Part shown: positions 3,257 through 59,771 of the stretch, piece by piece
Position numbering within the stretch: position 1 is the first letter of the stretch
Layout of the letters: each line of letters starts with the position of its first letter
From: a virus
Taxonomy: Duplodnaviria > Caudoviricetes
Strand: one strand, 5' to 3'
IMG/VR virus record: IMGVR_UViG_3300009419_000837
Coordinates: 1-59,781 of that record
DNA length: 59,781 nt
The notes under the pieces: model-generated
What the model saw: the letters and a program-made list of their open reading frames with translations, nothing else
Told to the model about the DNA's origin: nothing
The model's database searches: none
Made by a program: the position numbers and the translations under genes

Positions 3257-3564
3257 TCCTCTAATGTTTTTCCGTGTTTAGCAGCTTTGCGCTTCAGAGC
3301 GTTTCGCTCACGATGCGATAAGCCACCCCATATTCCGTGTTGTTCATCGTTACCTTCGGCATAGAGCAAACACTCTAACCTCACGGGACATTCTGCCTTA
3401 CCGTCTTTGCCAAAGCAAACTGACTTTGCGCGGTCGGCAATAGTTTTGTATTTAGTTTTGTCCCTAGGCGGAAACCAATCGTCGGTCTCTGGACTGTCGC
3501 ACATACCACGGCACTTAGCCTGATATCGCCACTTTTCTACGCCTTCGTCTTCGAACAAGAGCAC
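3238..3564 (-). CDS. whiB: WhiB-family Fe-S transcription factor
   Basis: W..QAKC, AKSVC, CPVRLECL, HGIWGGLSHRER. Confidence 0.93.
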   Translation of the reverse strand: MLLFEDEGVEKWRYQAKCRGMCDSPETDDWFPPRDKTKYKTIADRAKSVCFGKDGKAECPVRLECLLYAEGNDEQHGIWGGLSHRERNALKRKAAKHGKTLEEWVRKK

Positions 3565-22372: not shown

Positions 22373-23641
22373 TCAAGTTCCCGAAGGGCTAACCCACTTC
22401 TTAGCAATAATGACTTGGTTTGCTGTTTTTGGTTTTGTTCTGTTCTTAATGTTTCCAAAACCTACTTGAGCGTTTTTAGTTGGAGAAAGTGAGCCAGTTT
22501 TTAAAGTGGTCTTTGGCTTTTTGTTGGTCTGTCGTACGTTAGGAATAATCTTTCGTTTAGCGCGAGAGTTTGGCACTCTAACCACTTTATTATCGGCACC
22601 AGCAACTGCACTGCCCAATGAGTCTGTTCCTAGAGTTAACTCTGTTGTGTACATGAACTGTGTGTAGCCAGTTGATGTTAGTTTGTGTTCGGCTTCTAAG
22701 ATGACCCAAAAACCTGAGTAGTCCTCGTTCACTCCGTCGATAAAAACAGGAACATCGGGATGAAGCCCTGGGTCGCCTAACGCCTCTGCCTTAGCACGGT
22801 AAGGAAATCTATTACGTTGATCAGACGACTCAGATTCACTTTTAGCAACACTGTAATCGTTTGCGACAGTTGCGCTAGAAAATCTATCAAAAAATTCTGG
22901 TTCAGATCGTGTCTTTGTTGTTTTTGGGCGCAATTGGTTAGTCACTTGAATAACTTTACCTGTGTAAGCGTCCACGCCAGATACAGCAGTTGCAGACTTG
23001 TATTCCCCATCGTGCTCCAAGCTTTCACCAATTAAAGGGTTGAACGAGTACAGGGTGCTTCCCGCTGGGTCGTCTGCGTCTCTAAGGGTCAAGATTTGAG
23101 CGTTTTCTCTTCCTTCTTCGTACACTTTAAGCATTGGCTGAAAGTGAATCTCAGCGTTTTTAAATCTAGCAGAGTACCCGCACTGCTTAGCCAACTTGTT
23201 AATCATTTCCATGTCGGTAAGCCCAGCTTGAGATATTTGAGGATATACGCGTGGGTGCGGGGCTACTCGGTATGCAAAGTTGTTGCGTTTTGCAATTTCA
23301 ATAACAATTTCAGAAGCAGTTCGATTTTTATAGGTTGTTTGAGAAGTCTGCTTTAAGTAGTACGATGCTCCAATAAAGTGAACTTCTACATAGTTTTTTC
23401 CAGGAGTGAGGTTAGGCTTAATGTGGTGCACGTACCCACTAAAAGTCTCTACATTGTTATCGCCCTGAAGGGTGAACCGCATAGGAGTTCCCGGACGAAC
23501 GTTGTTGTAGGCAGGGTTCCAGTCACGAAACTTGAATGTTGCAAAATCGTGCTTGTATCTAGACTGCCAAAAGTTCATCTCTAGAACTTGCACAAGTTCT
23601 TCGTCTGCGTTTGGAAACTCAACACTTACAAAGTTATACAT
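22373..23641 (-). CDS. Baseplate hub (gp27/D-like); probably extends to 22302 via a 1-nt lesion
   Basis: FSGYV, TASEIVIEIAKRN, Q...TDMEMINKLAKQCG, GFWVILEAEH; position between the LysM and gp5 genes. Confidence 0.8.
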   Translation of the reverse strand: MYNFVSVEFPNADEELVQVLEMNFWQSRYKHDFATFKFRDWNPAYNNVRPGTPMRFTLQGDNNVETFSGYVHHIKPNLTPGKNYVEVHFIGASYYLKQTSQTTYKNRTASEIVIEIAKRNNFAYRVAPHPRVYPQISQAGLTDMEMINKLAKQCGYSARFKNAEIHFQPMLKVYEEGRENAQILTLRDADDPAGSTLYSFNPLIGESLEHDGEYKSATAVSGVDAYTGKVIQVTNQLRPKTTKTRSEPEFFDRFSSATVANDYSVAKSESESSDQRNRFPYRAKAEALGDPGLHPDVPVFIDGVNEDYSGFWVILEAEHKLTSTGYTQFMYTTELTLGTDSLGSAVAGADNKVVRVPNSRAKRKIIPNVRQTNKKPKTTLKTGSLSPTKNAQVGFGNIKNRTKPKTANQVIIAKKWVSPSGT

Positions 23642-23915
23642 TTGGTATCCTCAACACCTGTCCTGGCCGTATATTGTCTGGGTCAGAGATATCAGGATTG
23701 TGGTCAAGAATTGTCCACCACATGTCAGGGCGGTCGTAGTATCGCTGAGCGATGCTATCTAGTCTTTCTCCCTCGATGTAGGTGTGCTCTAGGTAAGAAA
23801 AAGTTCCTAATTCGTCAAAACTGTAAAACACAACAGCGTTTGCATCAGCATCCTGTGAGGTAGAAACGAAGTCAACAACAGAGTATTCGTATCTAGATCC
23901 TTGAAAGATTCCCAT
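23634..23915 (-). CDS. LysM / tail-X baseplate protein
   Basis: EGERLDSIAQRYYDRPDMWWTILDHNP...PGQVLRIP. Confidence 0.88.
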   Translation of the reverse strand: MGIFQGSRYEYSVVDFVSTSQDADANAVVFYSFDELGTFSYLEHTYIEGERLDSIAQRYYDRPDMWWTILDHNPDISDPDNIRPGQVLRIPNV

Positions 23916-23922
23916 GGTTCTC

Positions 23923-25071
23923 CTACTTAGTTGGGGCTACTGGAGCCGCTGTACCGTCGCTTGCAATACCCGCAGATGCCATCAAGTTCATTGAGATCTG
24001 AACGTCTGTGCGGAATGGGGTCATATCTTGGCTAAAAGCTAAGTGATTAACAGTCAATCCGTTAATGTACCCAATGTATGAAGATGGACCAATGTCTACT
24101 CGAAGAAGCGTTGCAGACAAATAACCAATATCAGAAGTGTTTCTTCCACTGATGCTCTTCCAGTTAGGTCCGTTTACCGCTTTGTAGATGTATTCAATAT
24201 CAGCCAGAGTGCCTAGTTCTAAAAGTTCTCTGATCTTATCTCGCATACTTTCACCGGGAACTAAAGAGAACCCAGTAGAGTAATACTGCGCCATTTGATC
24301 GATTGCTGGACCCTCTGTTGAAGCAGCCAAGATACCTGCAAGAGTAGTTGTGTTTACTGAACCTGAACTTCCAGCAACCGCTAAAGATGCTGGAGAAATA
24401 AGGTTCAAAGAAGACGCGTAGTCTTTTTTAAGCAAGTTTCGTAAACAAGTAAAGTCGTTTGTTCTATCAACTCTGATTGTAAAACTGATGGTTTCTCCGC
24501 TAGGGAAGGCTCCAGCTACACCTACGAAACGATCCGCTGGTGTAGGAGTAACTTCTGTGTTTAAAGAAACAGATGTAGAAAACGTTTCTGGGTTCCATAA
24601 GAACTGGAATCCGTACTTTCGGTCATCTCCATCGATCTGATTTTTTGGATTACCCTTAACGTTACTTGCGTAACTGTTTTTGGTGTTTGCATACCACCAT
24701 AGACGACCGCGTCGGTATCTTTCATCTACCGTACCCAACTTAGGGTTCAACGGATCGACATACACATCTGGGTGCATATCTATCGCACGAACTGGCAAAC
24801 TCCACTTGTGTGGTGGAAGGTTCCAGCGGTAGTTTAAAGGTTCTGTAGGAGGTTGCTTATCAGCATCTACCTTAGGCTTCTTCTTAAGAGCCGCCGCCGC
24901 TTTAGCAGCAGCCTTTTGTGCTTCTGCTTCTTTTTTAGCTCTAGCAGCCGCTCCGCGCTTTAAGCGTTCGGTCTCTCCCGGAATTCTAGCAATTCGTGCT
25001 CGTTCTCTTTCAGAGGCCGCTGCTGCTGCGCGAGCAGAGTCCGGGCTACTGGTTACGATGTTCTGAGACAT
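23923..25071 (-). CDS. Tail tube initiator-like protein
   Basis: FQFLWNPETFS...ISFTI...GYINGLTVNH..F...P.R..V; between the tape measure and LysM genes. Confidence 0.65.
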   Translation of the reverse strand: MSQNIVTSSPDSARAAAAASERERARIARIPGETERLKRGAAARAKKEAEAQKAAAKAAAALKKKPKVDADKQPPTEPLNYRWNLPPHKWSLPVRAIDMHPDVYVDPLNPKLGTVDERYRRGRLWWYANTKNSYASNVKGNPKNQIDGDDRKYGFQFLWNPETFSTSVSLNTEVTPTPADRFVGVAGAFPSGETISFTIRVDRTNDFTCLRNLLKKDYASSLNLISPASLAVAGSSGSVNTTTLAGILAASTEGPAIDQMAQYYSTGFSLVPGESMRDKIRELLELGTLADIEYIYKAVNGPNWKSISGRNTSDIGYLSATLLRVDIGPSSYIGYINGLTVNHLAFSQDMTPFRTDVQISMNLMASAGIASDGTAAPVAPTK

Positions 25072-27332
25072 TATCGGTTTACCGCCTTTTCACGAATATT
25101 ATCATCTGACAAAACACGACGAACTTCGTTAGCAATTGCTTTTACATCAGATGCAGAGTTCTCTGGCATATTAAATGTAATTGTAACTCCACCGTAGTTA
25201 ATAGTCTGAGCTTCGCTGTGGCTTTTGTTAAACATTCCATACGAAGTAGCAGATGTAGGACCTTCTCCGCCCATAGGTTGCAAAATTAAATTTCCAGCGC
25301 CTTTTTTTAAAGTCAAACTGTCACCGCTAGAAGGAACCGCGCCTCCAGTTAAAGTATTGGCGTTTGCTCCAGATAGATACGACATAGGATCTAACTTGTT
25401 TCCACCCTTGCGAACTTCAAAGTGCAGGTGTGGACCAGTAGATGAGCCAGAGTTACCGCTGTAACCAACAAGATCTCCAGCCTTAACCCTAGTGCCACCT
25501 TCAACTAATTTACGGCTTAGGTGACCAAAGAAGTTTTCAGCGCCATCTGAGTTTGATGTTTTAATGTAATTTCCAAAACCAGGTGCGTCATACCCAGTAG
25601 GCTCTACTACTCCGTCAGTAACCGCGTATACAGGAGTTCCTTCTGGAACACCGTAGTCAACACCTCCGTGAGGTTTTCCGTAAGAAGGGCTCTTCTGACC
25701 GTTGTTAAATGTAAGGTGACGGATCTTTCCAAACTCACTTGTAATTGGAGGCTTTCCAGAAAGAGGGTAAACCATTCCAAGAGAGGCCTCCGCAACATCA
25801 TCGCTTCCTCCGCCCTCGCCATAAGGATTCATGATAGATGCCGCTCCGCCAGCTACCGATCCAGCAATTGCAGCGTATGGGTTTTTAGTCGCAGCAAGTG
25901 TCGTTAACCCGCCTTGTAAAGTGTCAAAAGCAACGTTACCGCCAGTACGCAACCAGTCTGGTACATCCGCTTTATTTAAATAGTTTTGTAAAACTTCCAT
26001 TCCGCCGTACACAGCAGCGCCGCTAAGAAATCTTCCGCCAAATTTCTTAAGCCCACCCCATACGGATTTTCCAACAGACTTAACGCCAGTACCTAGTTTT
26101 CCAAAAGCTTTTCCACCAAATAAACTTCCAGCAAAACTTCCAAGCAATCCTCCAGCCATACCAAGACCAGTTGCTCCTGCTCCATTTCCAGAAGTTGCAA
26201 TGGTGTCTAAGAAGCCTTTTGATTCAAGAACTTTACGGAAAGCGTCTCCCATAATTCCAGCATCTCTAGCAAGATCAGCAACTTTATTACTTGCAGTAGC
26301 CAATAGTTCGTTGGCTTTTTCAAAACCTTTAAGGGTTGCTGGAGCAACTGCTTGAATTGCGTTAAGAGATGCGGCATTTCTGTCGCTCATAGAGGTAACA
26401 GCGCTAGTAGTTGCCCCAGATTTGTCTAACGATTCTTTTGTAAATGACCCTCCACCAGCCTTCTGGTAAAGAGCAGAAATAACACCTTGGCGAAGAACGG
26501 GGTCATTACCAAAGTACTGATCCATCATAGAAGCAAGAGCATTACCTGGTTGTAAAGAAAGAGACAAGTCTTGCTTAGTAATCTTGCTTGAGCCACTCTT
26601 TTGGCTATTAATATTTTTCCAAAGGTCGTTAGCGATGTCTTCAAAACTACGTTGTAGTCCGTCAGATCCTCGAACGTTAACGCCAATCATGCGGAGCATG
26701 TTTACGTTTCGACCTTGGTTAAGTGCGGCCATCGCTTGCATACCGCCAGATACACCGACTCCTGGCATAAGGTTAGAAATGGTTGCAGCACTTTGTGCAA
26801 TAGAGCTAAAGTTTTTAAGTCCCGGCATTAAGCCTTGGGTAGCGCCAATCATAGAGGCGCGAGCAGCGTCTAGAGGGTCAGTAGTTGTTCCCTGACGTGC
26901 CATCTGTAACTGTGTAGCATTGGCGTTTGCTCCACCATAGAAACCAAAACGCGAGCGCAGTAAGTCTTGTTCAAAAGATTGCTGAACAGTTGGCATCGCT
27001 TGCATAGCCATGCCGCCGACTTTTAGAGCGCCTTGAAGGATCTTTAATCCTAGGCTTGGACCGCCTCCACCGCTCTTACTTCCGTCGTTTTCTTCAGCTG
27101 TGTTGGTTCCAGTAGATTGTCCAAAACTTGAACCTAAAAGATTTCCAGAGCCACCACCGGGAAATGCTCCCTTTAAATTCTTAGAGATTTCTTCTGAGAG
27201 CTTTTTAGTTTTTTCTAGTTCCGCATTGAGGGTTTTAAATGCAGACGTCAGGTCAGCAACGAGTTCGGTCTTACGGCTAAAAATTCCGCCGCCACCACCG
27301 ACACCCATTGCTGATCCAGTATCTTTAGCCAC
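25071..27332 (-). CDS. Tape measure protein with C-terminal M23 peptidase
   Basis: Ala/Gly-rich helical body; HGGVDYG...HLS...STGPHLHFEV M23 motifs. Confidence 0.88.
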   Translation of the reverse strand: MAKDTGSAMGVGGGGGIFSRKTELVADLTSAFKTLNAELEKTKKLSEEISKNLKGAFPGGGSGNLLGSSFGQSTGTNTAEENDGSKSGGGGPSLGLKILQGALKVGGMAMQAMPTVQQSFEQDLLRSRFGFYGGANANATQLQMARQGTTTDPLDAARASMIGATQGLMPGLKNFSSIAQSAATISNLMPGVGVSGGMQAMAALNQGRNVNMLRMIGVNVRGSDGLQRSFEDIANDLWKNINSQKSGSSKITKQDLSLSLQPGNALASMMDQYFGNDPVLRQGVISALYQKAGGGSFTKESLDKSGATTSAVTSMSDRNAASLNAIQAVAPATLKGFEKANELLATASNKVADLARDAGIMGDAFRKVLESKGFLDTIATSGNGAGATGLGMAGGLLGSFAGSLFGGKAFGKLGTGVKSVGKSVWGGLKKFGGRFLSGAAVYGGMEVLQNYLNKADVPDWLRTGGNVAFDTLQGGLTTLAATKNPYAAIAGSVAGGAASIMNPYGEGGGSDDVAEASLGMVYPLSGKPPITSEFGKIRHLTFNNGQKSPSYGKPHGGVDYGVPEGTPVYAVTDGVVEPTGYDAPGFGNYIKTSNSDGAENFFGHLSRKLVEGGTRVKAGDLVGYSGNSGSSTGPHLHFEVRKGGNKLDPMSYLSGANANTLTGGAVPSSGDSLTLKKGAGNLILQPMGGEGPTSATSYGMFNKSHSEAQTINYGGVTITFNMPENSASDVKAIANEVRRVLSDDNIREKAVNR

Positions 27333-36032: not shown

Positions 36033-36737
36033 ATGAGAAAGCCTTTACCAATATTAAAGTACGAGTCAGCCCATTCCGATATAGATCCTAATATGGTTAG
36101 ACCAGCTAAGGCTACTATCTCAAAATGGTTTAAGGACACCCCAAAGTGGCTTAGCCCATTCCCGCCTAGGTCCGCTCAAGAGGCTGTGCCCACAGTAAAA
36201 ATGTGCACACCTTTTTTAGAGGCTATGGCTTTGGGGTATTTAATCCATTTGCCTATGGACTTGGTTGTTTCCATAGAAAATAATGTTCAGCACCTTTCTT
36301 GGAGAATAGGTGGAGATTTAGTTGGGGTTAGAGAAGAAGATAAAATTTCTTATCTACCTTCTCCAATTGGGTGCTCACCTACGCATTACACGTGGAAGCT
36401 ACCTTTATCTTTTTCAGTCCCTGTAGGGTACAGCGTTCTTTACACTCAACCTTTTAATAGACCAGAACTGCCTTTTGTAACTTTAAGCGGAGTTATAGAC
36501 GGACCTTTTGTCACTTCAGCTGGTGGAAGCATTCCTTTTTATCTTAAAAAAGATTTTGAAGGAGTAATACCGCAAGGAACACCCTTAGCTCAACTAGTTC
36601 CTTTTAAAAACGAAAACTGGGAAGCCAAAGAAACTAAAGGATTAATCCAAGAAGGTGAACAAAACAGTCGTAAAAGTAAAGCTGTTTTATCTGGATGGTA
36701 CAAATCAGCCTATTGGAAGAAAAAATCTTTTAATTAG
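36033..36737 (+). CDS. Uncharacterised protein, paralog of 37372..38085
   Basis: PAK..ISKWFK, TVKMCTPFLEAMALGY, PFNR..LPFVTLSGVID, EGVIPQGTPLAQLVPF; leaderless TAGAGT-N6-ATG. Confidence 0.85.
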   Translation: MRKPLPILKYESAHSDIDPNMVRPAKATISKWFKDTPKWLSPFPPRSAQEAVPTVKMCTPFLEAMALGYLIHLPMDLVVSIENNVQHLSWRIGGDLVGVREEDKISYLPSPIGCSPTHYTWKLPLSFSVPVGYSVLYTQPFNRPELPFVTLSGVIDGPFVTSAGGSIPFYLKKDFEGVIPQGTPLAQLVPFKNENWEAKETKGLIQEGEQNSRKSKAVLSGWYKSAYWKKKSFN

Positions 36738-37362
36738 GCTTTGGTTGATCGTGTAGCCACGTAACAACCGCGTACTTAGTTCCAGTTTTTACTGGGTGCG
36801 CTATGTGGCGGTACGCGTAACTTGCAGGGAACAACATTAAGGTACCAGCCTTAGGTTTAATTTTTATTCCAAAATTAACAAACTCAATTTCTCCGCCAGT
36901 GTAGTCATCGTTTAAGTACAAAATTGGAGATATAGATCTATGAGTGGCTGTTCCGCCATCGTAGTGGGCTTTATACTCTTGACCTGTTTGGTACTTAAGA
37001 AGGTTAAACTCTTCGACAAAAAATATGGACTCTGTTATACCTAGTGATTCGGTGTATCCATTCACAGCCGAGTAAGTTAGTTCAAAAAATCTATTATTTA
37101 AAATTCGTATGCTTTCATCTACTGGCGCGTAAGTTGAAATTGATAAGTGGCTATTGGTGCGGACATCTTCAGCAATCCTTTCCGTACCCGGAGTTTCTCC
37201 TCTAACACCAGCAGGCTTAAACTTAACTGATGATTCTGGATCAGATGTAACTCTCTCAATTGCATCAATAGTGGCTTGGGGAGAGTCCCAAACATTTTCG
37301 TATGCCGCAATGCAGCCCGCGTACACTGTAGTAGGTTCTATCGAAGAAGGTAGGATGTACAT
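36730..37362 (-). CDS. 2OG-Fe(II) oxygenase, prolyl-4-hydroxylase-like
   Basis: LLKY..GQEYKAHYD, LYLNDDYTGGE, LFP....H...PV..GTKY. Confidence 0.9.
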   Translation of the reverse strand: MYILPSSIEPTTVYAGCIAAYENVWDSPQATIDAIERVTSDPESSVKFKPAGVRGETPGTERIAEDVRTNSHLSISTYAPVDESIRILNNRFFELTYSAVNGYTESLGITESIFFVEEFNLLKYQTGQEYKAHYDGGTATHRSISPILYLNDDYTGGEIEFVNFGIKIKPKAGTLMLFPASYAYRHIAHPVKTGTKYAVVTWLHDQPKPN

Positions 37363-37371
37363 TTTTTTCCT

Positions 37372-38085
37372 TTACTTGTAGGACTTTTTAATCCAAAATT
37401 GTGATTGGTAAGATCGTACTAGTTTTGACATTATCATAAAACGTTCTTTTTCAGACTTCTCAAAAGAAAAAGGTTCTTTAACTTCATGCTCCCAGTTCTG
37501 TCTTATAAAAGGCATAACCTGAGCAATAGGAGTCCCTTTTTCTATAATACCTTCAAAGTTATCTTTAATGTATAGGTTAGCCACCAATGGTCGTATTGAT
37601 GTGTCAGTGTCTATAACCCCAGATAAAGTTAAAAATGGAAGGTCGTATCGGTTAAAAGGATGAGTTACTAAAACGCTAGATCCTTTTGGCGTTTTTATTC
37701 TTGGGTATAGCGCAACTCTCCAAACATCTTTTGCGTAGTTTTCAGGAATAGGTATTCCAGAACTTCTATGCGGAGGAGTATCTATATCAAAAGTTGCACC
37801 ATTTGATCGGTTAACGCCCCAAAAAACATGGGTAGATCCGTTAACTTTTCTAATTTCTATGTCTTGTGGGAGTAGCATCATGTAGCCACTAGTCATAGCA
37901 TCTACAAAAGGCATGCACTTTTTTACAGTAGATCGGTCTCTGGTGCTACCAATATGCTGTTCAATAGGAACTTCTGGTGGTATTTTTTTAAACCAATCTG
38001 GTAAAACTTGATAGGCTGGCTTAGGAGGATCCTCAGTCGCATAAATTTCTGGTGTCGCAGCTATAAACTCAATCTTTTTTGCCAT
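37372..38085 (-). CDS. Uncharacterised protein, paralog of 36033..36737
   Basis: PKPA..LPDWFK, TVKKCMPFVDAMTSGY, PFNR..LPFLTLSGVID, EGIIEKGTPIAQVMPF; start at ATG 38085 (TATGCT-N6-ATG). Confidence 0.85.
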   Translation of the reverse strand: MAKKIEFIAATPEIYATEDPPKPAYQVLPDWFKKIPPEVPIEQHIGSTRDRSTVKKCMPFVDAMTSGYMMLLPQDIEIRKVNGSTHVFWGVNRSNGATFDIDTPPHRSSGIPIPENYAKDVWRVALYPRIKTPKGSSVLVTHPFNRYDLPFLTLSGVIDTDTSIRPLVANLYIKDNFEGIIEKGTPIAQVMPFIRQNWEHEVKEPFSFEKSEKERFMIMSKLVRSYQSQFWIKKSYK

Positions 38086-38108
38086 GAGCAGAGCATACAC
38101 CTAAAAAA

Positions 38109-39234: not shown

Positions 39235-42200
39235 TTAGAAGTTCTGGTTAGCTGATGCGTATACAATCCAAGCGCCAGCGTTTGTACGATGGAACGAGAA
39301 TGTAAAGATATCAATCTTACCGGCACCATTTGTGCCTGTTGGAGTTAGGCTGTTAGCCCAACGAATAGTTTGACCAGCGCCATTAATGTTAACAGTCGAT
39401 GGGATACGACCGGTAGCACCTTGAGTAACAAAAACGTTTGTAGTCATGATGAAGTTGTTATCTGTAGGAACGTTTGTGAAGTTAAACGTCATGTTACCAG
39501 TAGGAGCAGAGGCAATGTAGAATACGTTATCAGCAGTCCAGTCAAGTGTTACAGCGTTAGATCCATCAAGAGTAACGTTTCCTACTTCTTCACGAAGTTC
39601 ACCGATTGTGGTTGTACCAGTGCTTGTAATTCCACCGTTAAATGTAGCTGCACCAGTAAATGTTGAAGTGCTGGTTACTGCTAAAGTTCCCTGTGTAGAA
39701 ACGTTACCAGTTGTTGCGTTAACAGTGAATTGGTTTGTGTTGATTGCGATATTAGACGCAGCTCCACCAGTAATGGTTGAAGAGAAGGTCGCTGCTGCTG
39801 CGGTTAGATTTCCTACACGTACAGCATCGTAAACAAGGCCTGCTTGAGCGTAATCAACTGTGGTTTCTGGCTTGACAATAATGTTAGAAGCAAGCTTCCA
39901 AGTGCTATCTGTAGCATCCTTTGACCAAGTGTTGTAGCGAGTACGGATAGGGTCTGCAACAAGTGCTGAAGATACCGACTGATTAACAACAGATGTACCA
40001 GTTGGGCTTACAGCCGTAGAGGAGACGTTTGTTGTTGTCTTAGCATAAGAGAAGGTGTTGCTTGTTACGGCAGTAATTGTGTAAGTACCGTTAAATGTTG
40101 AATCAACGTTAGTTACAACTACAGTTTCACCAACAAGGTAAGGGTGAGTTGCAGTTGTTGTAAGTGTCGCTACGTTAGATACAAGAGCCTTATTGTTGAT
40201 AGAGAATGTCTGATCACCAATACGTGCGCTCGGTACGTTAGTTGCTGTTTTAGCGTATGTAAATGATGTTGTGTTTGGAACAGTAGTAATTGTGTAGGTT
40301 CCGTTGAATGTAGAATCAATTGCGGCTACAACTACAGAGTCTCCAACTAAGAAGCCGTGAGCAACTTCTGTTTCTAGAGTTGCTACGTTAGATGTAAGAG
40401 CCTTGTTAACAACCTTACGGCTTGGCAAGAATCCAGATACTGTGTACTTACCTTCAACTACAATACCTAAATCGTTTGTAAGAGACGTTGACCCGTCACC
40501 AGTAAAGATGAATGGTGCTTCAACGGCAAGGTTAGCGGTACCTACCTGAGTACCTTCACCACCGAATACGATGTTACCTTGAATGTAAACATCACCTGAG
40601 ATACCAACGCCACCAACAACAGTTAGCGCACCAGTAGTAGGTGATGTAGAAGGTGTTGCAATTTCAATGTGTACGTTAACACCTGGTGTGATTTCCATCT
40701 GAGTATTGTCAGATGCTAGACCGCCTGCCGCAAAAATAATCTTGTTCTGCGAGCCTGTGTCGCCAGTAGCAAACACCAAGTTACCTTGGTCGTCTCCACC
40801 TTCCGCGCCAACAACAAAAATGTAACCGTCACCCTTACCAGTGATTGTAAACTCTGGGTCAGAGAAGTTAGAGGATGTGATACCCATATCGATGTAACCA
40901 GAAGAGTCGGTTCCATTGTTTGAGTACGCAATAAAGTCGGTAGAAGCATTAGCATTTGTGCTACGGTTCTGGAAAGCAATCTGTGAGTAGTCGTTAAGGT
41001 TTGTATCAACTACAACAACTGGGTTAGTAAGTGATGCTAAGAAGTTGTTAGCGTTTGAACCAATTGGGAGAGTTGTAACTCCAGAAAAGTCTACAGTTCC
41101 GTTCACATCAAGGTCACCCGCGATATTTACGTTACCCGCGCTACCAATACCGCCTGCTACTACAAGAGCACCTGTTGTTGAAGAGGTTGACTCTGTTTCA
41201 ATTTCAATGTGGACAGTCTCGTTTGGAATAATAATCATCTGTGTTGTTCCAGCGGTAAGACCGCCAGCGGCAAACACGATGTTGTTAGAAAGTCCAGTTT
41301 CTGTTGTTGCTAAAACAAGGTTACCGTCTCCAGCTGGAGCCCAAGTCAAGCCTGCTGGATCAAGGGCTGTTTCAGCTTCTGGAGAACCAGTGGTTGTAAA
41401 AGTGAATGTTACTGAGGTAGGTGCCCCAACAACTGTGCGCTTTCCATCATAGGCAGCACCAACGCCGGTTACTCGAACAACGTCTCCAGTTGTGTAACCA
41501 TGTGGGAGTGAGGTGGTTAGTGTTGCAGTTCCAGCGAGGGTCTTCTTAGAAACAACATCGTATGTGTCTCCTTGAGGCGCTGACATGAATACGTAACCAT
41601 CATGTGGGCCAGTGATTCCATAAGTCTCAGCATCAAAGTTGTTGCTGGTAATACCCATGTCAATCCAGCCGTTATCGTTTACGCCGTCTGCGGTGTATGC
41701 AATAAAGTCAGTTGATGCGTTAGCACCATTGTTTAGGTTAACGATTGGGAACTGAGCAAAGTCAGTTGTTGAGGCTGAGAACACAGACATAGCGTCTGTA
41801 AGACCAGCAGATGTTTCAAAGTTTACAGCACCTGTTCCTTGAGACCCACCTGTGTAAGTTTTAGTTAAACGAGTAGTGGCTGTCCAAAGAGAATCTGTAC
41901 CGTCTGTAGATAAAAGTTTGTATGCTTGACCTGATTGGTTTGGCAGACCTTCTTGACCCAAAGCAAAGAGTACGGTGTTATCGTTTGGAAGAGCACCTGC
42001 TGGAGTAGCTGAAGTATGTTGAACAGTTACGATAAATGTACTTGTTCCGTCTGTTACAAGATCATTTACATAATAAAGAGTATTTTGAGTATAAGTTCCG
42101 CGCCAGTCAGCACCTTCAACAATCAAAGCCCAATATGTAGCGTTAGATGGTGCGTTACCTGTTGTAGCAGTATTGCTTTTATATGCGTAAAGGTTAGGGC

Positions 42201-42297
42201 CGTACTTAGCAATGTCATTGTACGAGTACTCTGCTGAATCAGTGTACGTACCTGTCCAATTAAAGCGAAGCTTTCCTAAATCTAGGATCTGTGCCAT
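39235..42297 (-). CDS. Large virion fibre/structural protein with internal duplication
   Basis: LDLGKLRFNW.G.Y N-terminus; two NASTDFIAY...IDMGITS repeats; three beta-modules; IRWA...IDIFTF C-terminus. Confidence 0.8.
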   Translation of the reverse strand: MAQILDLGKLRFNWTGTYTDSAEYSYNDIAKYGPNLYAYKSNTATTGNAPSNATYWALIVEGADWRGTYTQNTLYYVNDLVTDGTSTFIVTVQHTSATPAGALPNDNTVLFALGQEGLPNQSGQAYKLLSTDGTDSLWTATTRLTKTYTGGSQGTGAVNFETSAGLTDAMSVFSASTTDFAQFPIVNLNNGANASTDFIAYTADGVNDNGWIDMGITSNNFDAETYGITGPHDGYVFMSAPQGDTYDVVSKKTLAGTATLTTSLPHGYTTGDVVRVTGVGAAYDGKRTVVGAPTSVTFTFTTTGSPEAETALDPAGLTWAPAGDGNLVLATTETGLSNNIVFAAGGLTAGTTQMIIIPNETVHIEIETESTSSTTGALVVAGGIGSAGNVNIAGDLDVNGTVDFSGVTTLPIGSNANNFLASLTNPVVVVDTNLNDYSQIAFQNRSTNANASTDFIAYSNNGTDSSGYIDMGITSSNFSDPEFTITGKGDGYIFVVGAEGGDDQGNLVFATGDTGSQNKIIFAAGGLASDNTQMEITPGVNVHIEIATPSTSPTTGALTVVGGVGISGDVYIQGNIVFGGEGTQVGTANLAVEAPFIFTGDGSTSLTNDLGIVVEGKYTVSGFLPSRKVVNKALTSNVATLETEVAHGFLVGDSVVVAAIDSTFNGTYTITTVPNTTSFTYAKTATNVPSARIGDQTFSINNKALVSNVATLTTTATHPYLVGETVVVTNVDSTFNGTYTITAVTSNTFSYAKTTTNVSSTAVSPTGTSVVNQSVSSALVADPIRTRYNTWSKDATDSTWKLASNIIVKPETTVDYAQAGLVYDAVRVGNLTAAAATFSSTITGGAASNIAINTNQFTVNATTGNVSTQGTLAVTSTSTFTGAATFNGGITSTGTTTIGELREEVGNVTLDGSNAVTLDWTADNVFYIASAPTGNMTFNFTNVPTDNNFIMTTNVFVTQGATGRIPSTVNINGAGQTIRWANSLTPTGTNGAGKIDIFTFSFHRTNAGAWIVYASANQNF

Positions 42298-53205: not shown

Positions 53206-53488
53206 TCCACTCCTCAATATCGTCTGGGGTAAGACCCATGTCTCTTATGCCAAGTGCCTTAGCCAGTCTATCTTCGGCTCCAGCCTCGTCGTATTCTGCC
53301 ACCTCTGAGCCTTTATGCCAAAAGCCAATATAAAATCCGGGGAGGGTTTTAGGGAAGCGGAAGACTAAGCAACTTCCTTTTCTAAATGGAAGTTCAGACT
53401 CTTGAGTCCATCCCTTTTCGATTACAGGGAGAAGGTTGCGGTGGTAGTACTGAAGTGTTCCTACGTATAGTGGTCCGTATGATTTCAT
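53198..53488 (-). CDS. Hypothetical protein
   Basis: TAATG-coupled. Confidence 0.65.
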   Translation of the reverse strand: MKSYGPLYVGTLQYYHRNLLPVIEKGWTQESELPFRKGSCLVFRFPKTLPGFYIGFWHKGSEVAEYDEAGAEDRLAKALGIRDMGLTPDDIEEWNV

Positions 53489-53928
53489 TAGCTGTTAAAT
53501 ATAACCCTTATCTCTGGCGGCATCCCTGAAGGATCGAAGGGTCCCATATTATCGTGAGTATCAAGACCTGAGTATTTCAAGAACTTACCTGTAGAGTCGC
53601 TAGCCTTTAGGTTAGTCCACATAGCAGGAGGGATTTCGTTGTACTCCCACCAAGTACCATCTCTAAACTTAACAACCAACTTTTGAGCCTCTTTGCTGTA
53701 CGCCAGTTTTAAGGCTCGTGGTCGAGCGGGATTAGTAGTTGGTGCAGGCTGGTTTCTAAATGTAATAGGCTCTTTTGCAGGCTCCATTTCCCAGTCAGTC
53801 CACTGGGAGTTTATGCGCTCATCAAAGCCAGTCTTTTCAGCCATACGCATGGCTATGTTGAACTTCTTATTAGCCTCGTCTTGGCGGTTTAACTCTGCAC
53901 GGCTGATGCCGTTTCTTGACCTAGCCAT
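53488..53928 (-). CDS. KTSC-domain protein
   Basis: AY...QKLVVKFRDG..WEYNEIP...W..L.ASDSTGKFL. Confidence 0.8.
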   Translation of the reverse strand: MARSRNGISRAELNRQDEANKKFNIAMRMAEKTGFDERINSQWTDWEMEPAKEPITFRNQPAPTTNPARPRALKLAYSKEAQKLVVKFRDGTWWEYNEIPPAMWTNLKASDSTGKFLKYSGLDTHDNMGPFDPSGMPPEIRVIFNS

Positions 53929-54419: not shown

Positions 54420-54689
54420 TTACTTAGCCTTCTTCGCAGTCTTCTTCGCTGGAGCCTTGTCTGCTTCTGCAAGCTTAGCAAGAGCATCAGTTGCGACCTT
54501 TGCCGCAATACCGAAAGCTGGATCCTTAGGATTGATTGCGCGGATTGCTACTGGAAGAGTAGCTGAAAGCGCCGCGATAATTACAGACTTCACATCGTTG
54601 TTTCCAGTTGCGCTAACAGCGATTACTGCCGCACCGAATGAACGAGCGTAAGAGGCGAGCATCGCCTTATACTTTTTATTGATCTTCAT
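54420..54689 (-). CDS. Putative holin
   Basis: ASYARSF.AA, two hydrophobic segments, RAINPKD.AFG, basic tail. Confidence 0.7.
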   Translation of the reverse strand: MKINKKYKAMLASYARSFGAAVIAVSATGNNDVKSVIIAALSATLPVAIRAINPKDPAFGIAAKVATDALAKLAEADKAPAKKTAKKAK

Positions 54690-54738: not shown

Positions 54739-54975
54739 TTACTTATCGCCTTCTTTGAGATGCTGATCTAGGCGACCCTTCATCTCGGCAACGTCTGCTT
54801 TAATCTCACCTAATAGAGGCAGAATCTCAAGCCTGATCTTGTCAGATAGGCTGTCCCCACCATTAGGCTTTAGTTCGCTTAAAAATGATTTAACGATCCA
54901 CCGGGTAAACATACCTACCCCCGTAAGAGTTGCGGTAACAGCGGCGGCAAAACCTGCCCAATCAAGTGCGCTCAT
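54739..54975 (-). CDS. Single-pass membrane protein (lysis-region type)
   Basis: N-terminal TM segment, ELKPNGGDSL.D, coiled coil. Confidence 0.7.
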   Translation of the reverse strand: MSALDWAGFAAAVTATLTGVGMFTRWIVKSFLSELKPNGGDSLSDKIRLEILPLLGEIKADVAEMKGRLDQHLKEGDK

Positions 54976-55192: not shown

Positions 55193-55732
55193 ATGCTTAA
55201 TATCAGAATCAACTTCCAAGTTGATCTAAAGAAAGTAGGAGCGGTATGGATGACAATGTTCTTAATGTTCTCCCATCTAGTGGTTCCACCAACGGCTGCG
55301 GCGCTAACTGTGCCTGCACCTGCGGAGAAGCCGATAACGGTGAGCCTGACCTACTTGAAGGTAACAACGACTAAAACAGCAGCCAAGGCCGCCTTGGCAA
55401 GTGACACCGTCAAATACTTTGACGCTGAAGCGCTCGCTTTCTTAACAGTTTACGCAAGTGACTGGCCTATGAAAGAGTGGAAGTGTCTCCGAGCCATCTG
55501 GGATCGAGAGAGCAACTTCAACCCTAAAGCAGAGAACAAGAGCTCTGGCGCATATGGAATTGCCCAGTTCATGCCATCTACTTGGGGTAACTACAAAGTA
55601 GAAAAGACAGCTGAAGCCAAGCTTCAGATTAAATACGGACTTCGCTATATCTTTAAGCGGTATGGCTCAGAAAACGATCCGCATGGCGCATGCAACGCGT
55701 GGGCCTTCTGGCAAAAAAATAAGTGGTACTAA
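55193..55732 (+). CDS. Secreted/anchored lytic transglycosylase (SLT / Rpf-like lysozyme fold)
   Basis: Hydrophobic N-terminus with AAA; CL..IW.RESNFNP.A.N.SSGAYGIAQF; QI.YGL.YI..RYG. Confidence 0.88.
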   Translation: MLNIRINFQVDLKKVGAVWMTMFLMFSHLVVPPTAAALTVPAPAEKPITVSLTYLKVTTTKTAAKAALASDTVKYFDAEALAFLTVYASDWPMKEWKCLRAIWDRESNFNPKAENKSSGAYGIAQFMPSTWGNYKVEKTAEAKLQIKYGLRYIFKRYGSENDPHGACNAWAFWQKNKWY

Positions 55733-55773
55733 AGCAAAAAGCCCCCTGCTATATGCAGGGGGCTTTTTTGTTT
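55731..55773. terminator. Bidirectional intrinsic terminator
   Basis: AAAAAGCCCCCTGC-TATAT-GCAGGGGGCTTTTT between convergent genes. Confidence 0.9.
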
Positions 55774-55778
55774 AACTA

Positions 55779-56615
55779 TCAGTCTGTGTTAAGTACGCGG
55801 ATGTCAACAGTAGTTTCTACGTCAACAATGCTTCCCGCAGCTGTGTCCTGTGCAACGATAAAGCGGTTAGAAGAGTTAACCCATGCAAATCCTGATGCAC
55901 CAGATTGAACATCAAGTTCTGGGTCATAGGCTGTAGGAACCTCAAATCGAACTGCGTCCGGGTCTGTAACTTCTACAATCTTTACGTTAGACCAAGTTCC
56001 ACTAAACCCATCCCCATCGTTGTAGTCAATGTTAATAACATCCCCTACAAGAAGCTCATGGTTTTCTGTAAACTGAACGGTTACAAAGTTGTCTTGGCTA
56101 TAGAATGAATTAACGTCGTAGTTTACGTAAGTACGGTTGTAGTTAAGGTTTGCTGCCAAGAGCAGGTTCTGTCCCGGAGTACGGAGCATTCCGCGAACGT
56201 TAGGGACAACAGTCTCTAGGCCAGCGTCTCCATCGCCTGCGTAGTTCTCAATGTAGCCAGGGAAGTTTGAGTAACCAGTTGTAGCGATTGTGTGGCTATC
56301 TGCTGGTGTACGAACAACAGCATCAAAGAGATCCTGCCATGCTTCAGTGTAGTTGTAAGGCGTTGTCTGTAGGGTGTCGCTTGAAATTGTCCAAGTGCTA
56401 TCCCAGCCTACATCGCCATTACCGCCACCAAATGAGGTGTAGGTGTCTGTGCGATCATCGTTTGGCTGCATTGGGATATTTCCCCATACGCGATCTACTT
56501 GAACGTTGCCAGTTACAGTGCCTTCACCCGTTGGGTACCAGCCTGAACGAAGAACACCGTTCTCATCAGTAAAGACTTGGAAAGACTTTTCTTCCCACTC
56601 TTCTCTATATGTCAT
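55779..56615 (-). CDS. Paralog 1: novel N-terminal domain plus split PASTA domain
   Basis: GNVQVDRVWGNIPMQPNDDR...DSHTIATTGYSNFP; VPNVRGM...[insert]...IVAQDTAAGSIV. Confidence 0.8.
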   Translation of the reverse strand: MTYREEWEEKSFQVFTDENGVLRSGWYPTGEGTVTGNVQVDRVWGNIPMQPNDDRTDTYTSFGGGNGDVGWDSTWTISSDTLQTTPYNYTEAWQDLFDAVVRTPADSHTIATTGYSNFPGYIENYAGDGDAGLETVVPNVRGMLRTPGQNLLLAANLNYNRTYVNYDVNSFYSQDNFVTVQFTENHELLVGDVINIDYNDGDGFSGTWSNVKIVEVTDPDAVRFEVPTAYDPELDVQSGASGFAWVNSSNRFIVAQDTAAGSIVDVETTVDIRVLNTD

Positions 56616-56663
56616 TTCTTTCCTATCTATAGATTGGTTAAGACCCTTACGTCTAAGGGAATG

Positions 56664-57698
56664 TTAAACGTTCTTTGTCCAGGTTCCGCCATTGCCTGTA
56701 GTGTTGGTTGATACTGTGATGTTACGGATAACTACCTTAGTTCCACCAGTGTTGTAAGCATCATCATTTACTACTGAGATTACTTCCCAGTTGCCGTTGT
56801 AGTCAGTTCCGCCATTGCCAGCGATGTTAATGCTCCAACCGACAGCAGGCTTAATTGTGCGACCTAGTAGGAACATGTTGTAATCTCCAGCAGGCAATCC
56901 TGAGTCAAATACAATTGCTTGAATAGAGCCTGTTACATGAATGTGGTTGTACATCACATAGGCTACGGTGCTTCCTGGAGCAACAATTGTTCCAGCGGCA
57001 ACAGCCTGTGACTTAACTGTTCCATTGTTTAATAAAGTTGCGCCATCGCTAGACAAGCTAGCTGAGCCTACAAGTCCAACGGCTGTTAATGCGTTACCAA
57101 TCTGAATTGTGTTCATTCCAAGAAGGTTAGGAACAGCCACACCTGCTTGGAAATAGGTTGCAGTTACAGTGCTTCCATCGTTTACTATTGTTCCAGCGGC
57201 TGGATTTTGAAGTTTAAATGTTCCATCGTTATCTTCAGTCGCTCCACTGGTTGAGTTGGCTCTTACAAAAGAAAGCCCTAGGCTTTCAATAAGTGCTTCA
57301 GCGGCTGTATCGGTTAGAGAACGAAGATCTGGAACTGCAAGTTCAAATTCGATATCCCCATCGCCTGAATAGTCAGGGATATACGCTGGGAAGTTGTTGT
57401 AGCCCGTCTTAATAATGTCGTGAGTTGAAGGTACTACTACTAGACGCTCAGTTACATCGTCCCAAGAAGCGCCAGCGCCATCTTTATCGCCTACTGAAAG
57501 ACCTTGATCGTATGTAGTGTTAAGCGTGTCGCTAGTTGCTCCTTGTGAAGGCGCTGTCCAACCACGGTCTCCCGGCTGGTTGTAGTTATTATTCCAGTCC
57601 GCACCATCATCTGTGCGTTGTTCATCTGGTTGCATTGGGACGTTGCCCCATACAAAATCTACACGGATGTTTCCGTTGTCATCTAATGGATATGGCAT
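56664..57698 (-). CDS. Paralog 2: novel N-terminal domain plus two PASTA domains
   Basis: GNIRVDFVWGNVPMQPDEQR...HDIIKTGYNNFP; VPDLRSL...QNPAAGTIV; VPNLLGM...GTVKSQAVAAGTIV. Confidence 0.85.
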   Translation of the reverse strand: MPYPLDDNGNIRVDFVWGNVPMQPDEQRTDDGADWNNNYNQPGDRGWTAPSQGATSDTLNTTYDQGLSVGDKDGAGASWDDVTERLVVVPSTHDIIKTGYNNFPAYIPDYSGDGDIEFELAVPDLRSLTDTAAEALIESLGLSFVRANSTSGATEDNDGTFKLQNPAAGTIVNDGSTVTATYFQAGVAVPNLLGMNTIQIGNALTAVGLVGSASLSSDGATLLNNGTVKSQAVAAGTIVAPGSTVAYVMYNHIHVTGSIQAIVFDSGLPAGDYNMFLLGRTIKPAVGWSINIAGNGGTDYNGNWEVISVVNDDAYNTGGTKVVIRNITVSTNTTGNGGTWTKNV

Positions 57699-57823
57699 TA
57701 TCGGCCCCTTGTCTTAGTTACTTCTACGGTTACTTTAGAGCCACCGTTTTTTAATGCCTTAAGTGCATCAATAGCAGAAACGTTAGTCTCTACTCCTTCT
57801 TCGCTTTTTACTTTGATTTCCAT
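57698..57823 (-). CDS. Small hypothetical protein (41 aa; MEIKVKSEEGVETNVSAIDALKALK...)
   Basis: Manually translated. Fills the gap; TAATG coupling to paralog 2. Confidence 0.6.
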   Translation of the reverse strand: MEIKVKSEEGVETNVSAIDALKALKNGGSKVTVEVTKTRGR

Positions 57824-57825
57824 TA

Positions 57826-58764
57826 TTACCACCATCCAGCGTTATTTTTGCGAGAGTCATTAGAAAAAACAACTACCATGTAGTCTTCCGCCATGCCATC
57901 AGCGCTAAGGATGTCTCCTGCGTCAAACGCAAGAGAAGCAGCGATTACGCCGTCTAGGTCTGAGCCGTAGACAGGCACACCTTGAATATCATCGTAGATA
58001 TAAACATCTGCTGGAATGTAGCTGTAAAGAACACATCCGTCCTCGTTGTAGGTTCCAGACTCGTCCCACTCATCTTCAACTTCGCCTGAGAAGGTTGCAT
58101 CTCTAAAGAAAGCTGGGTTTACGCCCATTGAACGTAGGTAGTCGAAGTAATGCGTAACTTTAGCCTCTTCAAGTGAGGCATTGTTAAACAAGCCAACTCG
58201 TGGAGCGTAGTACTCTTCTCCGTTTTCAAGAACCATACCTGTCCAAGGCTCATTAACAACATCTACTCGGCCATAATAAAGACCAGTTAATTCACCTGTA
58301 GAAAGCTCATCAGAAATTCTAAATTTTGTTGCATCTGCGTAGAGTACTTCTCTGTTACTAGTGTTGAAGTTTTTGGTAAGGTCATCGCATCCAGTGATGG
58401 TTACGAAGTCTCCAACTTGAAGGTTATTTTGCGATGTGTACTCATAATCATCGCCACCTAGATACTTAACAGCGGTCACCTTATAGTTGCGGGAACCGGC
58501 TGTTGGACCATCCTTAAGTGGGTATGCGTTCCACTCAGTGGCAGCAATCTTGTGGCTATCTAGAACGCCAAGCTTCTGTGAAAGAAACATTCCAGCGCGG
58601 TCTTCATCTGGCTGAATAGGGAAGGTACCGAACGCGAAGTCAATTGCTACGTTACCGTCAACAAGACCTTCACCAGTTGGGTAGTATCCAGAGCGAATAG
58701 TTCCGCCCATGTCTTCAAATACTTGGAAAGATACTTCTTCCCATTGTTCTCTATCGTACGGCAT
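57826..58764 (-). CDS. Paralog 3: novel N-terminal domain, beta-module and acidic C-terminal domain
   Basis: REQWEEVSFQVF...RSGYYPTGEGLVDGNVAIDFAFGTFPIQPDEDR...DSHKIAATEWNAYP. Confidence 0.8.
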   Translation of the reverse strand: MPYDREQWEEVSFQVFEDMGGTIRSGYYPTGEGLVDGNVAIDFAFGTFPIQPDEDRAGMFLSQKLGVLDSHKIAATEWNAYPLKDGPTAGSRNYKVTAVKYLGGDDYEYTSQNNLQVGDFVTITGCDDLTKNFNTSNREVLYADATKFRISDELSTGELTGLYYGRVDVVNEPWTGMVLENGEEYYAPRVGLFNNASLEEAKVTHYFDYLRSMGVNPAFFRDATFSGEVEDEWDESGTYNEDGCVLYSYIPADVYIYDDIQGVPVYGSDLDGVIAASLAFDAGDILSADGMAEDYMVVVFSNDSRKNNAGWW

Positions 58765-58805: not shown

Positions 58806-59771
58806 TTAGGAAATTGTCAGCGCTACTTGCTCTTCGATCCATTTGTAAGTTTTAGTAAGACCTGCTTTGAGGTCCTCATCTACCGACCAACCCATGACTG
58901 ACTTAAACAAAGTGTTGTCTGATGTGCGTGCATGTACACCTATAGGACCGTCGATGTGCTTCTTTGTTAGTTGCTTTCCAGCAATCTCTGAAACGATGTC
59001 TACTAACTCATTGATAGACACATGCTTTTCAGATCCGATGTTGATTGGCTCGAAGAACTTTGCCTCTCTGTAGAACTCCACAGTTGCACGGATGCACTCA
59101 TCTATATACAAGAAAGAGCGGTGCTGGTTGCCGTCTCCCCAAATCTCAATCTCATCTGTAGCCTTTGCTACTTTACGGCAGATAGCCGCTGGAGCCTTTT
59201 CCTTACCGCCGTCCCATGTGCCGTAAGGTCCAAATACGTTGTGGTATCTAGCGATCTTGTTCTTCATCCCGTGGTTCTTGTTGTAGGCAGTGTAGAGGCG
59301 CTCGCTGAATAGCTTCTCCCAGCCGTACTCAGTATCTGGAGATGCTGGGTAAACGGTCTCTTCTTTGCAGTTAATACTGGAAGGATCCATCTGGTTGCAC
59401 TCTGGGTACACGCAGGCAGTAGAGGAGAAGAACACGCTCTTAACGCCAATATCCTGAGCCCTCTTTAGAACGTTTACATTTATAAGAATTGAGTTGCCCA
59501 TGACATCTGCGTCATTATCTCCAGTGTTGATGTAGCCAGCGCCACCCATATCAGCAGCTAGTTGGTACACCTCATCGAACGCCTGATCTAAAGTAGCAGC
59601 GACTACATTGACGTCCCGTAGGTCTCCAATTACAAAGTCATCTGCAAAGGTATCCCAATGCTCTGGGTGCTTTAAGTCCACGCCACGAACCCACATGCCG
59701 TCCTCTTTAAGGCGCTTTACTAAATGGCTTCCAATGAAGCCGCCTGCTCCTAGAACTAATGCTTTTCTCAT
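58806..59771 (-). CDS. GDP-mannose 3,5-epimerase-like extended SDR
   Basis: GAGGFIG, LAADMGGAGYI, SSTACVYP, YGWEK, GTWDGGKEKAPAAICRK are characteristic of GME. Confidence 0.9.
   Translation of the reverse strand: MRKALVLGAGGFIGSHLVKRLKEDGMWVRGVDLKHPEHWDTFADDFVIGDLRDVNVVAATLDQAFDEVYQLAADMGGAGYINTGDNDADVMGNSILINVNVLKRAQDIGVKSVFFSSTACVYPECNQMDPSSINCKEETVYPASPDTEYGWEKLFSERLYTAYNKNHGMKNKIARYHNVFGPYGTWDGGKEKAPAAICRKVAKATDEIEIWGDGNQHRSFLYIDECIRATVEFYREAKFFEPINIGSEKHVSINELVDIVSEIAGKQLTKKHIDGPIGVHARTSDNTLFKSVMGWSVDEDLKAGLTKTYKWIEEQVALTIS

Follow-up and report, generated by a model that had tools for sequence, protein, structure and literature searches.

Three genes converge on a lytic transglycosylase gene

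The window analysed here, a linear virus record from IMG/VR (IMGVR_UViG_3300009419_000837, Caudoviricetes; 59,781 bases, completeness estimate 62%), has near one end three adjacent genes, par1, par2, and par3, that face a gene for an SLT-type lytic transglycosylase. All three lie on the minus strand: par1 (55779-56615) encodes 278 amino acids (aa) with an isoelectric point (pI) of 4.05, par2 (56664-57698) encodes 344 aa (pI 4.12), and par3 (57826-58764) encodes 312 aa (pI 4.06). The transglycosylase gene (SLT, 179 aa) is on the plus strand at 55193-55732. The four open reading frames (ORFs) are located where an annotation made from the letters of the window, the original prediction, had placed them. 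Its further claims of an exported SLT, of three par proteins without signal peptides, and of a shared bidirectional terminator also held. The SLT protein is probably exported, having a signal-peptide-like N-terminus with a hydrophobic stretch at aa 17-31, and no such stretch is found at the N-termini of par1-3. Between SLT and par1 lies a bidirectional intrinsic terminator (55732-55778), a strong hairpin (55732-55774) of -29.1 kcal/mol (z -7.1, equalled by 0 of 200 shuffles) that is preceded by an A-run and followed by a T-run. Intergenic regions inspected by eye for a late-promoter motif revealed nothing clear.

The SLT protein passes Pfam PF01464 (39.1 bits against a cut-off of 21.3, E 6.4e-10) and falls into PHROGs transglycosylase families. 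Its translation contains E106-S107 within ...WDRESNFNP..., which we take to be the catalytic Glu-Ser motif. The label "Rpf-like" that it had been given was dropped, as the Rpf-type family PF06737 scores 19.6 bits (E 0.0014), below its cut-off of 27.

Paralogy and domain make-up of par1-3

The original prediction described three neighbours with a common N-terminal domain and a leader common to two of them, and pairwise sequence comparison confirmed par1, par2, and par3 as true paralogs. BLASTP aligns par1 aa 36-161 with par2 aa 9-146 (37% identity, E 3e-23) and par1 aa 4-61 with par3 aa 5-62 (57% identity, E 9e-21), the latter alignment covering the shared leader and the first motif of the domain; par2 and par3 have this first motif in common (E 7e-6). 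In par1, the leader (aa 1-32) is followed by the N-terminal domain, hereafter N-domain (aa 33-134, 56214-56519), and by a PASTA domain that is split by a beta-barrel in the AlphaFold model (aa 135-278, 55782-56213). The par2 protein lacks the leader and consists of the N-domain (aa 5-122, 57333-57686; E 3.3e-26 with the N-domain hidden Markov model [HMM]), two PASTA domains identified by Pfam (aa ~122-250, 56949-57335), and a putative C-terminal module, the predicted "beta-module", formed by the last 94 residues (aa 251-344). The par3 protein has the leader and a short N-domain (aa 1-85, 58510-58764), an E1 FCCH-like beta-barrel (aa 90-172, 58249-58497), and a C-terminal, possibly PASTA-like domain with an insert (aa 182-303, 57856-58221).

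The PASTA assignments were examined by HMM and by structure, as had been proposed with them, and par2 passes by Pfam (PF03793, 53.2 bits against a cut-off of 23.2, in two stretches, matching the two predicted domains) and par1 by fold. By sequence, par1 has a sub-threshold PASTA half (14.4 bits), and the Pfam scan of par3 returned no PF03793 hit, only a sub-threshold E1_FCCH. The model of par1 was built from an 80-row alignment and has a mean predicted local distance difference test score (pLDDT) of 83.4; aa 135-278 exceed 93, and the N-domain lies at 54-73. Residues 133-276 match the PASTA domains of Staphylococcus aureus PBP1 (7o4c; Z 11.0, root-mean-square deviation [rmsd] 1.6 Å, 59 residues aligned) and of PknB (Z 10.5). 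The 13 chains matched at Z >= 8 are 12 PASTA domains and the phi92 endosialidase barrel; the latter aligns (Z 8.4) with a six-stranded barrel at aa 165-246. Because this barrel is inserted there, the PASTA domain of par1 is split, as the original prediction had described it. Foldseek with the par1 model gave no match in the PDB at E <= 0.001, only weak barrel hits (ATPase N-domains and endosialidase), and in BFVD only uncharacterised "uncultured Caudovirales" PASTA proteins.

In the par3 model (34 rows, mean pLDDT 73.4; N-domain below 50, C-terminal domain 85-94), the barrel (aa 90-171) matches the E1 FCCH domain (Z 9.5). The "acidic domain" predicted for par3 needs correction, for aa 182-303 also align with StkP PASTA (5nod; Z 7.7, rmsd 2.9 Å, 73 residues aligned, with a long insert). 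This is a grey-zone score that is common for the tool, and it weakly suggests that the C-terminal domain of par3 is PASTA-like. An HMM of the par1 barrel found no second barrel in par2 (including its C-terminal module), par3, or a 1020-aa protein encoded elsewhere in the window. The VIA-align structure searches covered the confident C-terminal parts of the models and barely touched the N-domain. No catalytic family was found in par1-3 by Pfam.

A constant N-terminal domain with exchangeable partners

The N-domain consists of two motifs, GNVxVDFVWGNxPxQPxDDR and DxHxIAxxG(Y/W)xxxP, around a variable insert, and its invariant columns agree with the motif as first written down in the original prediction. 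In the par1 family, both motifs have a column conservation of 0.80, whereas the insert, the PASTA domain, and the barrel reach 0.49-0.52. Sequence searches at E <= 0.001 returned 186 relatives of par1 and 43 of par3. A profile built from an alignment of 41 rows of the N-domain alone matched 298 clusters (50% identity) at E <= 0.001, of which 201 also pass E <= 1e-10. Nearly all of the 150 matches listed, which are proteins of 78-623 aa, have the N-domain at their N-terminus or close to it. The minimal form of the protein has ~205-220 aa, with the two motifs ~30 residues apart and then one PASTA domain.

PASTA is the commonest C-terminal partner of the N-domain, being present in 37 of 58 relatives (Pfam scan, E <= 0.01) and in 18 of 38 longer representatives, which have up to four repeats. 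Other partners are Gly_rich_2 (in three proteins), Flg_new (in one), and an E1_FCCH-like barrel (in several), and none of the 96 proteins scanned has an enzyme domain fused to the N-domain. Judged by these family matches, the partners of the N-domain are binding modules and not enzymes. The proposed pattern of a constant N-domain joined to interchangeable, putatively wall-binding C-terminal modules is thus seen across the 298 clusters.

The N-domain could not be assigned to a characterised family when it was first noted, and searches of Pfam, PHROGs, and PDB sequences without a significant match agree with this. There was likewise no match to it in the ESM Atlas feature search or in Foldseek; for par2 aa 1-122, the ESM Atlas gave no usable feature hit and structure rows with TM <= 0.35, and PHROGs had no match to par1-3 at E <= 0.1. 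Full-text literature searches, supplements aside, listed no publication that deals with this N-domain in phage proteins or with PASTA domains in virions. When the N-domain profile was compared with all PDB sequences at E <= 10, three matches were returned, all of them Soc proteins of T4-type phages (E 0.53-0.69), over motif 2. Searches of PDB sequences with par2 and with a par3 profile gave equally weak, chance-level hits to unrelated proteins. Aligned by hhalign with a Soc profile built from the Soc genes of nine phages, the N-domain reached a probability of 36% over 24 of 103 columns, and 6% when the minimal domain was used. Pfam Soc (PF16855) had no hit at E <= 10 on seven N-domain pieces or on the six-frame translation of the window, with a T4 Soc control at 185.5 bits.

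Copy number and conservation in a phage lineage

In IMG/VR, 300 stretches encode a relative, of which we kept 80 loci. The N-domain HMM identified 92 ORFs in 79 of these 80 loci: 71 loci have a single copy, 3 have two, and 5 have three. Most relatives are single-copy, and only a minority have the three-paralog arrangement of the window. Where three copies occur, their order is fixed: par3-type, par2-type, par1-type. Five complete genomes of 96-100 kb have 3, 3, 1, 1, and 1 copies, always in a single cluster.

The N-domain gene is present in all five complete genomes. To this we added loci selected by their terminase only (602 relatives found, 80 kept, 81-96% identity), a set from which loci with less upstream DNA and three loci already in the N-domain set were excluded. 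Where the upstream sequence reaches 6.5 kb or more, 24 of 24 of these loci carry an N-domain gene, and where it reaches 4 kb or more, 30 of 31 do; the N-domain family is therefore a core gene of the lineage. The genes lie on the structural-gene strand, a few kb upstream of conserved small genes and 3-6 kb upstream of the terminase, portal, and capsid genes.

A KTSC-domain protein of 146 aa (53488-53928, minus strand) is encoded just upstream of the terminase and is kept in 72 of 80 relatives; its gene comes immediately after the N-domain gene in one subclade. Between par3 and par2 of the window there is an ORF of 41 codons (57699-57823, minus strand) that the original prediction had missed, the stop of which overlaps the par2 start (TAATG). 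Its counterparts at the same place in loci L004, L005, L008, L010, and L011 encode zinc-ribbon-like mini-proteins of 46-53 aa (CxC...CxxC). All four Cys are lost in the window copy, and loci L013, L006, and L009 have no ORF at this place.

The transglycosylase neighbourhood and lysis

Jackhmmer identified an SLT-like ORF in 55 of the 80 loci, always on the strand opposite to the N-domain gene; BLASTP at 1e-5 recovers it in only 16 and is an undercount. In 48 loci, the ORF lies no more than 314 bp downstream of the N-domain gene, while in 7 the distance is 4.8-6.8 kb. It is absent from 24 loci that have an N-domain gene and at least 1.2 kb of sequence downstream, and one further locus gave no HMM hit. 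A free-standing SLT_3 gene is found in all five complete genomes, and in one subclade (G004) it is ~24 kb from the N-domain gene. Given this distance and the 24 loci lacking a nearby SLT, the neighbourhood is common but not required. Of the linkage proposed in the original prediction, the recurrence of an SLT on the opposite strand therefore stands, and its obligatory character does not. In one subclade, a ~6-kb block lies between the N-domain genes and SLT, with an ORF of 1140-1160 aa without a Pfam family (L010, 12040-15531; L022, 12242-15670) and a DUF7455 protein.

Divergent from SLT, two genes on the minus strand (54739-54975, 78 aa; 54420-54689, 89 aa) encode small membrane-type proteins according to hydropathy, by which alone they look holin-like. 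They match no Pfam or PHROGs family, and their homologues occur in 47 and 34 of the 80 loci, respectively.

Such neighbours, together with the convergent SLT, would suit par1-3 as soluble wall-targeting accessory proteins of a lysis or wall-remodelling module, an explanation that we consider doubtful. The proteins would be late products that stay in the cytoplasm until a breach of the membrane gives them access to the wall, where the PASTA domains and barrels would bind peptidoglycan and the N-domain would recruit or position a lytic enzyme (SLT, CHAP, or other). Multimeric endolysins have comparable separate wall-binding subunits, PASTA is a peptidoglycan-associated fold, and holin-dependent lysins, like par1-3, have no signal peptide. 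The SLT protein, however, carries its own export signal and is encoded on the other strand beyond a terminator, so that joint assembly in the cytoplasm would be awkward. The loci that keep the N-domain gene with no SLT in reach speak against the idea as well, as does the total lack of catalytic fusions among the scanned N-domain proteins. Moreover, all five complete relatives encode a CHAP lysin elsewhere, which in G005 lies with a membrane-protein neighbour ~9 kb from the N-domain genes, and par1-3-type genes are therefore not needed as an endolysin.

The possibility that the N-domain itself is the catalytic domain of an endolysin was rejected: no catalytic family was detected, the minimal domain has ~60 aa and is mostly coil in AlphaFold, and there is the CHAP lysin in the complete relatives. 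Nor do these proteins belong to the modular endolysins, as no peptidoglycan-cleaving domain was found in par1-3, the 58 relatives, or the 38 longer representatives.

par1-3 as candidate virion-docked wall adhesins

We favour, with a probability of roughly 40%, the explanation that par1-3 are virion-attached adhesins for the host wall that are built like Hoc of phage T4. We observe the paralogy, domain make-up, PASTA fold, core-gene status, and synteny described above, and infer the attachment, the docking site, and the ligand. We prefer this explanation because the proteins combine a constant front, which seems not to fold by itself, with a shuffled back, because they are encoded by a core gene on the structural-gene strand, and because they bear acidic bead-like binding modules and no catalytic domain in a phage lineage with a separate CHAP lysin. 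Their lack of a signal peptide, the near-confinement of the family to phages, and the barrel modules shared with a protein of the tail-fibre region are also counted in its favour. PMC10385173 describes Hoc as a conserved capsid-binding domain with a variable acidic string, a fibre pI of ~4-5, and no enzymatic activity; the pI values of par1-3 (4.05-4.12) are in the range of this fibre.

In such adhesins, the N-domain would be a short module that docks onto a conserved part of the particle, with the capsid surface as the favoured site and the neck or tail as others, and it may fold only on its particle partner. Its motifs are modelled as low-confidence coil despite the 80-row alignment, as would be expected if this segment needs a partner to fold. 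PASTA domains and small beta-barrels, strung together in the acidic C-terminal part, would project outward, bind exposed peptidoglycan or a wall glycopolymer of the Gram-positive host, and aid adsorption. As one docking site would serve all three paralogs, the particle would bear a mixture of heads.

The barrel module of 35 of the 92 N-domain proteins of the relatives matches tandem repeats (aa ~600-790) in the 1020-aa protein of the window, which is encoded in the tail-fibre region (39235-42297, minus strand) and has no Pfam family (E values to 1.6e-13). The N-domain proteins therefore have modules in common with a likely surface protein. This would also befit tail or baseplate side fibres, with a trimerising N-domain as the adaptor onto the baseplate or neck and three paralogs that serve as alternative or joint receptor-binding proteins and set the host range. 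Receptor-binding proteins classically pair a conserved N-terminus with a variable C-terminus, and the fixed gene order of the three-copy loci is in line with side fibres. We nevertheless regard side fibres as unlikely: the fibre and baseplate genes are ~10-20 kb away, the proteins are short (even the longest match listed is of 623 aa), and neither collagen-type nor other fibre families were found in the 58 + 38 proteins scanned. In addition, PASTA strings in solved structures are monomeric beads.

A third alternative, the second idea of the original prediction, puts par1-3 to work inside the cell, as decoys or sequestering proteins whose PASTA domains bind lipid II or muropeptide precursors or mimic a PknB-type sensor, and which would stall wall synthesis or rewire growth and dormancy signalling. 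The PASTA fold is that of PknB, PrkC, StkP, and penicillin-binding proteins (PBPs), par1-3 have no export signal, and the phage carries mimics of host regulators, namely homologues of WhiB (3238-3564, minus strand, E 1.8e-14) and SpoVS (251-523, minus strand, E 1.2e-29). Host PASTA sensors act outside the membrane, however, and a cytoplasmic copy would therefore miss the extracellular ligand pool. Intracellular decoys would also leave unexplained that the N-domain is the best-conserved part, that heads are freely swapped, and that barrel modules recur in the tail-fibre-region protein, and no kinase, phosphatase, or other effector domain was found in the 58 + 38 proteins scanned. We therefore consider this very unlikely. 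The probability that these four readings leave over is reserved for explanations that we have not thought of.

Several points weigh against virion-docked adhesins. The genes belong neither to the head block nor to the tail block proper. They adjoin a secreted SLT, convergent at a distance of up to 314 bp in 48 of 80 loci, as well as two holin-like membrane proteins, and this placement also fits a wall or lysis role. Binding of a muropeptide, lipid II, or a beta-lactam by the PASTA domains is assumed by analogy with the fold, and the presence of family members in virions is likewise something that we infer. The counts for core-gene status and synteny are not independent, because they come from one closely related lineage (terminases 75-96% identical). 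A homology of the N-domain to Soc, not significant and spanning 24 columns, was downgraded to a motif-level lead; the capsid protein is of the Phage_capsid_4 type, and no gp23-family match was returned for it. INPHARED had no DNA or protein match, and no cultured relative was found there. A complex prediction of the capsid protein with par1 aa 1-140 scored 0.00 against a mark of 0.32; run with no controls and with an uncertain partner fold, it is evidence neither way.

The phage and its probable host

The window amounts to ~62% of a genome of ~96 kb from an uncultured lake phage with a contractile tail. It encodes a portal, a major capsid protein of the Phage_capsid_4 type, and the large terminase, as well as a tail sheath, a T4 gp19-type tube, baseplate J/W/V-type proteins, and collagen-like fibres. 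The relative G005 is complete (96,030 bases, direct terminal repeats) and colinear with the window. The WhiB and SpoVS homologues belong to the replication block of the window, and G005 encodes a second WhiB.

PMC6802176 and PMC10202952 treat WhiB as a marker for actinobacterial phages. We scanned a genome collection of 185,579 species, with one genome each; the single relative of the family that was confirmed lies on a phage-like contig in the bin of a Candidatus Nanopelagicaceae metagenome-assembled genome. The N-domain family is thus essentially confined to phages, and from the WhiB marker and this contig, the host is probably a freshwater acI-type (Nanopelagicaceae) actinobacterium, which is Gram-positive.

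Other genes of the window may act on the wall or on the particle. Upstream of the baseplate genes, a 753-aa protein with an M23 peptidase domain is encoded (25071-27332, minus strand), and there is a 93-aa LysM protein (23634-23915, minus strand); they are likely virion-borne wall-degrading and wall-binding parts. Genes for 2-oxoglutarate (2OG)-Fe(II) oxygenases, phrog_7084 proteins, and a nucleotide-sugar epimerase are found at 36033-38100 and 58806-59771 of the window and at 82004-87438 of G005 (L097). These groups adjoin collagen-like tail-fibre genes and stand upstream of the N-domain genes, and G005 adds an O-FucT-like transferase; all of these genes may serve the hydroxylation or glycosylation of virion proteins. 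Further upstream of the oxygenase cluster, G005 encodes Hsp20 and a CHAP protein adjoining a membrane protein.

Relation to known systems and significance

Hoc of T4 is the closest working model for par1-3, although the family is not a member of the Hoc, Soc, or lactococcal carbohydrate-binding module (CBM) groups. Hoc joins a capsid-binding domain to a string of small, acidic, beta-rich projecting domains, an architecture that, according to PMC10385173, is kept across many phages. Yet its anchor is C-terminal and its string Ig-like, whereas the presumed anchor of par1-3 is N-terminal and followed by PASTA domains and beta-barrels. In sequence, the N-domain is unrelated to Hoc, and Hoc is proven to bind the capsid, which par1-3 are only presumed to do.

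The small capsid clamp Soc (PF16855) of T4 and RB69 is the sole protein in the PDB that the N-domain profile touches, through motif 2 (DxHxIAxxxYxxFP). According to PMC3012670, Soc tolerates fused cargo. The match is not significant (E 0.53-0.69; hhalign 36% and 6%), and the capsid protein of our phage is of the Phage_capsid_4 type. A far-fetched but conceivable reading makes the N-domain a capsid clamp of a new kind, perhaps remotely related to T4 Soc and adapted to a Phage_capsid_4-type shell. With such a clamp, this abundant lineage of phages of lake actinobacteria would practise a natural "phage display" of PASTA domains, modules by which the host itself senses nascent peptidoglycan. The particle would thereby home to the growth zones (septum and poles) of active cells, and the secreted SLT on the opposite strand would free muropeptides that wake dormant neighbours.

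Lactococcal phages of the 936 group carry wall-binding modules (CBMs) on several parts of the virion, which aid adhesion according to PMC6669499. Their CBMs are fused into structural proteins (neck passage and tail), whereas par1-3 are free-standing, have a putative anchor of their own, and use PASTA as the module. The PASTA domains (PF03793) of the kinases PknB, PrkC, and StkP and of class B PBPs have the same fold as those of par2, by Pfam, and of par1, by structure. The host proteins, however, are extracellular, membrane-anchored, and attached to a kinase or transpeptidase, while the phage proteins lack signal peptides, membrane segments, and enzyme domains, and the par1-type PASTA is split by an inserted barrel.

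What is new here is an unnamed, presumed anchor domain that would display PASTA and that occurs in an abundant uncultured phage lineage. In lakes, the freshwater actinobacteria of the acI/Nanopelagicales group rank among the most abundant bacteria, and hardly any of their phages have been cultured. PMC10202952 counts only two described isolates of acI/Nanopelagicales phages, both of ~39 kb. If par1-3 are virion-docked adhesins, they would represent a new way for a phage to grip the Gram-positive wall, by a core family of a widespread lineage with genomes of 96-100 kb, and the N-domain would provide display work with another small anchor, a new one. If one of the alternatives is true, the proteins would instead be a new kind of lysis helper or wall-sensor mimic. 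Under any of these readings, the N-domain merits a family name.

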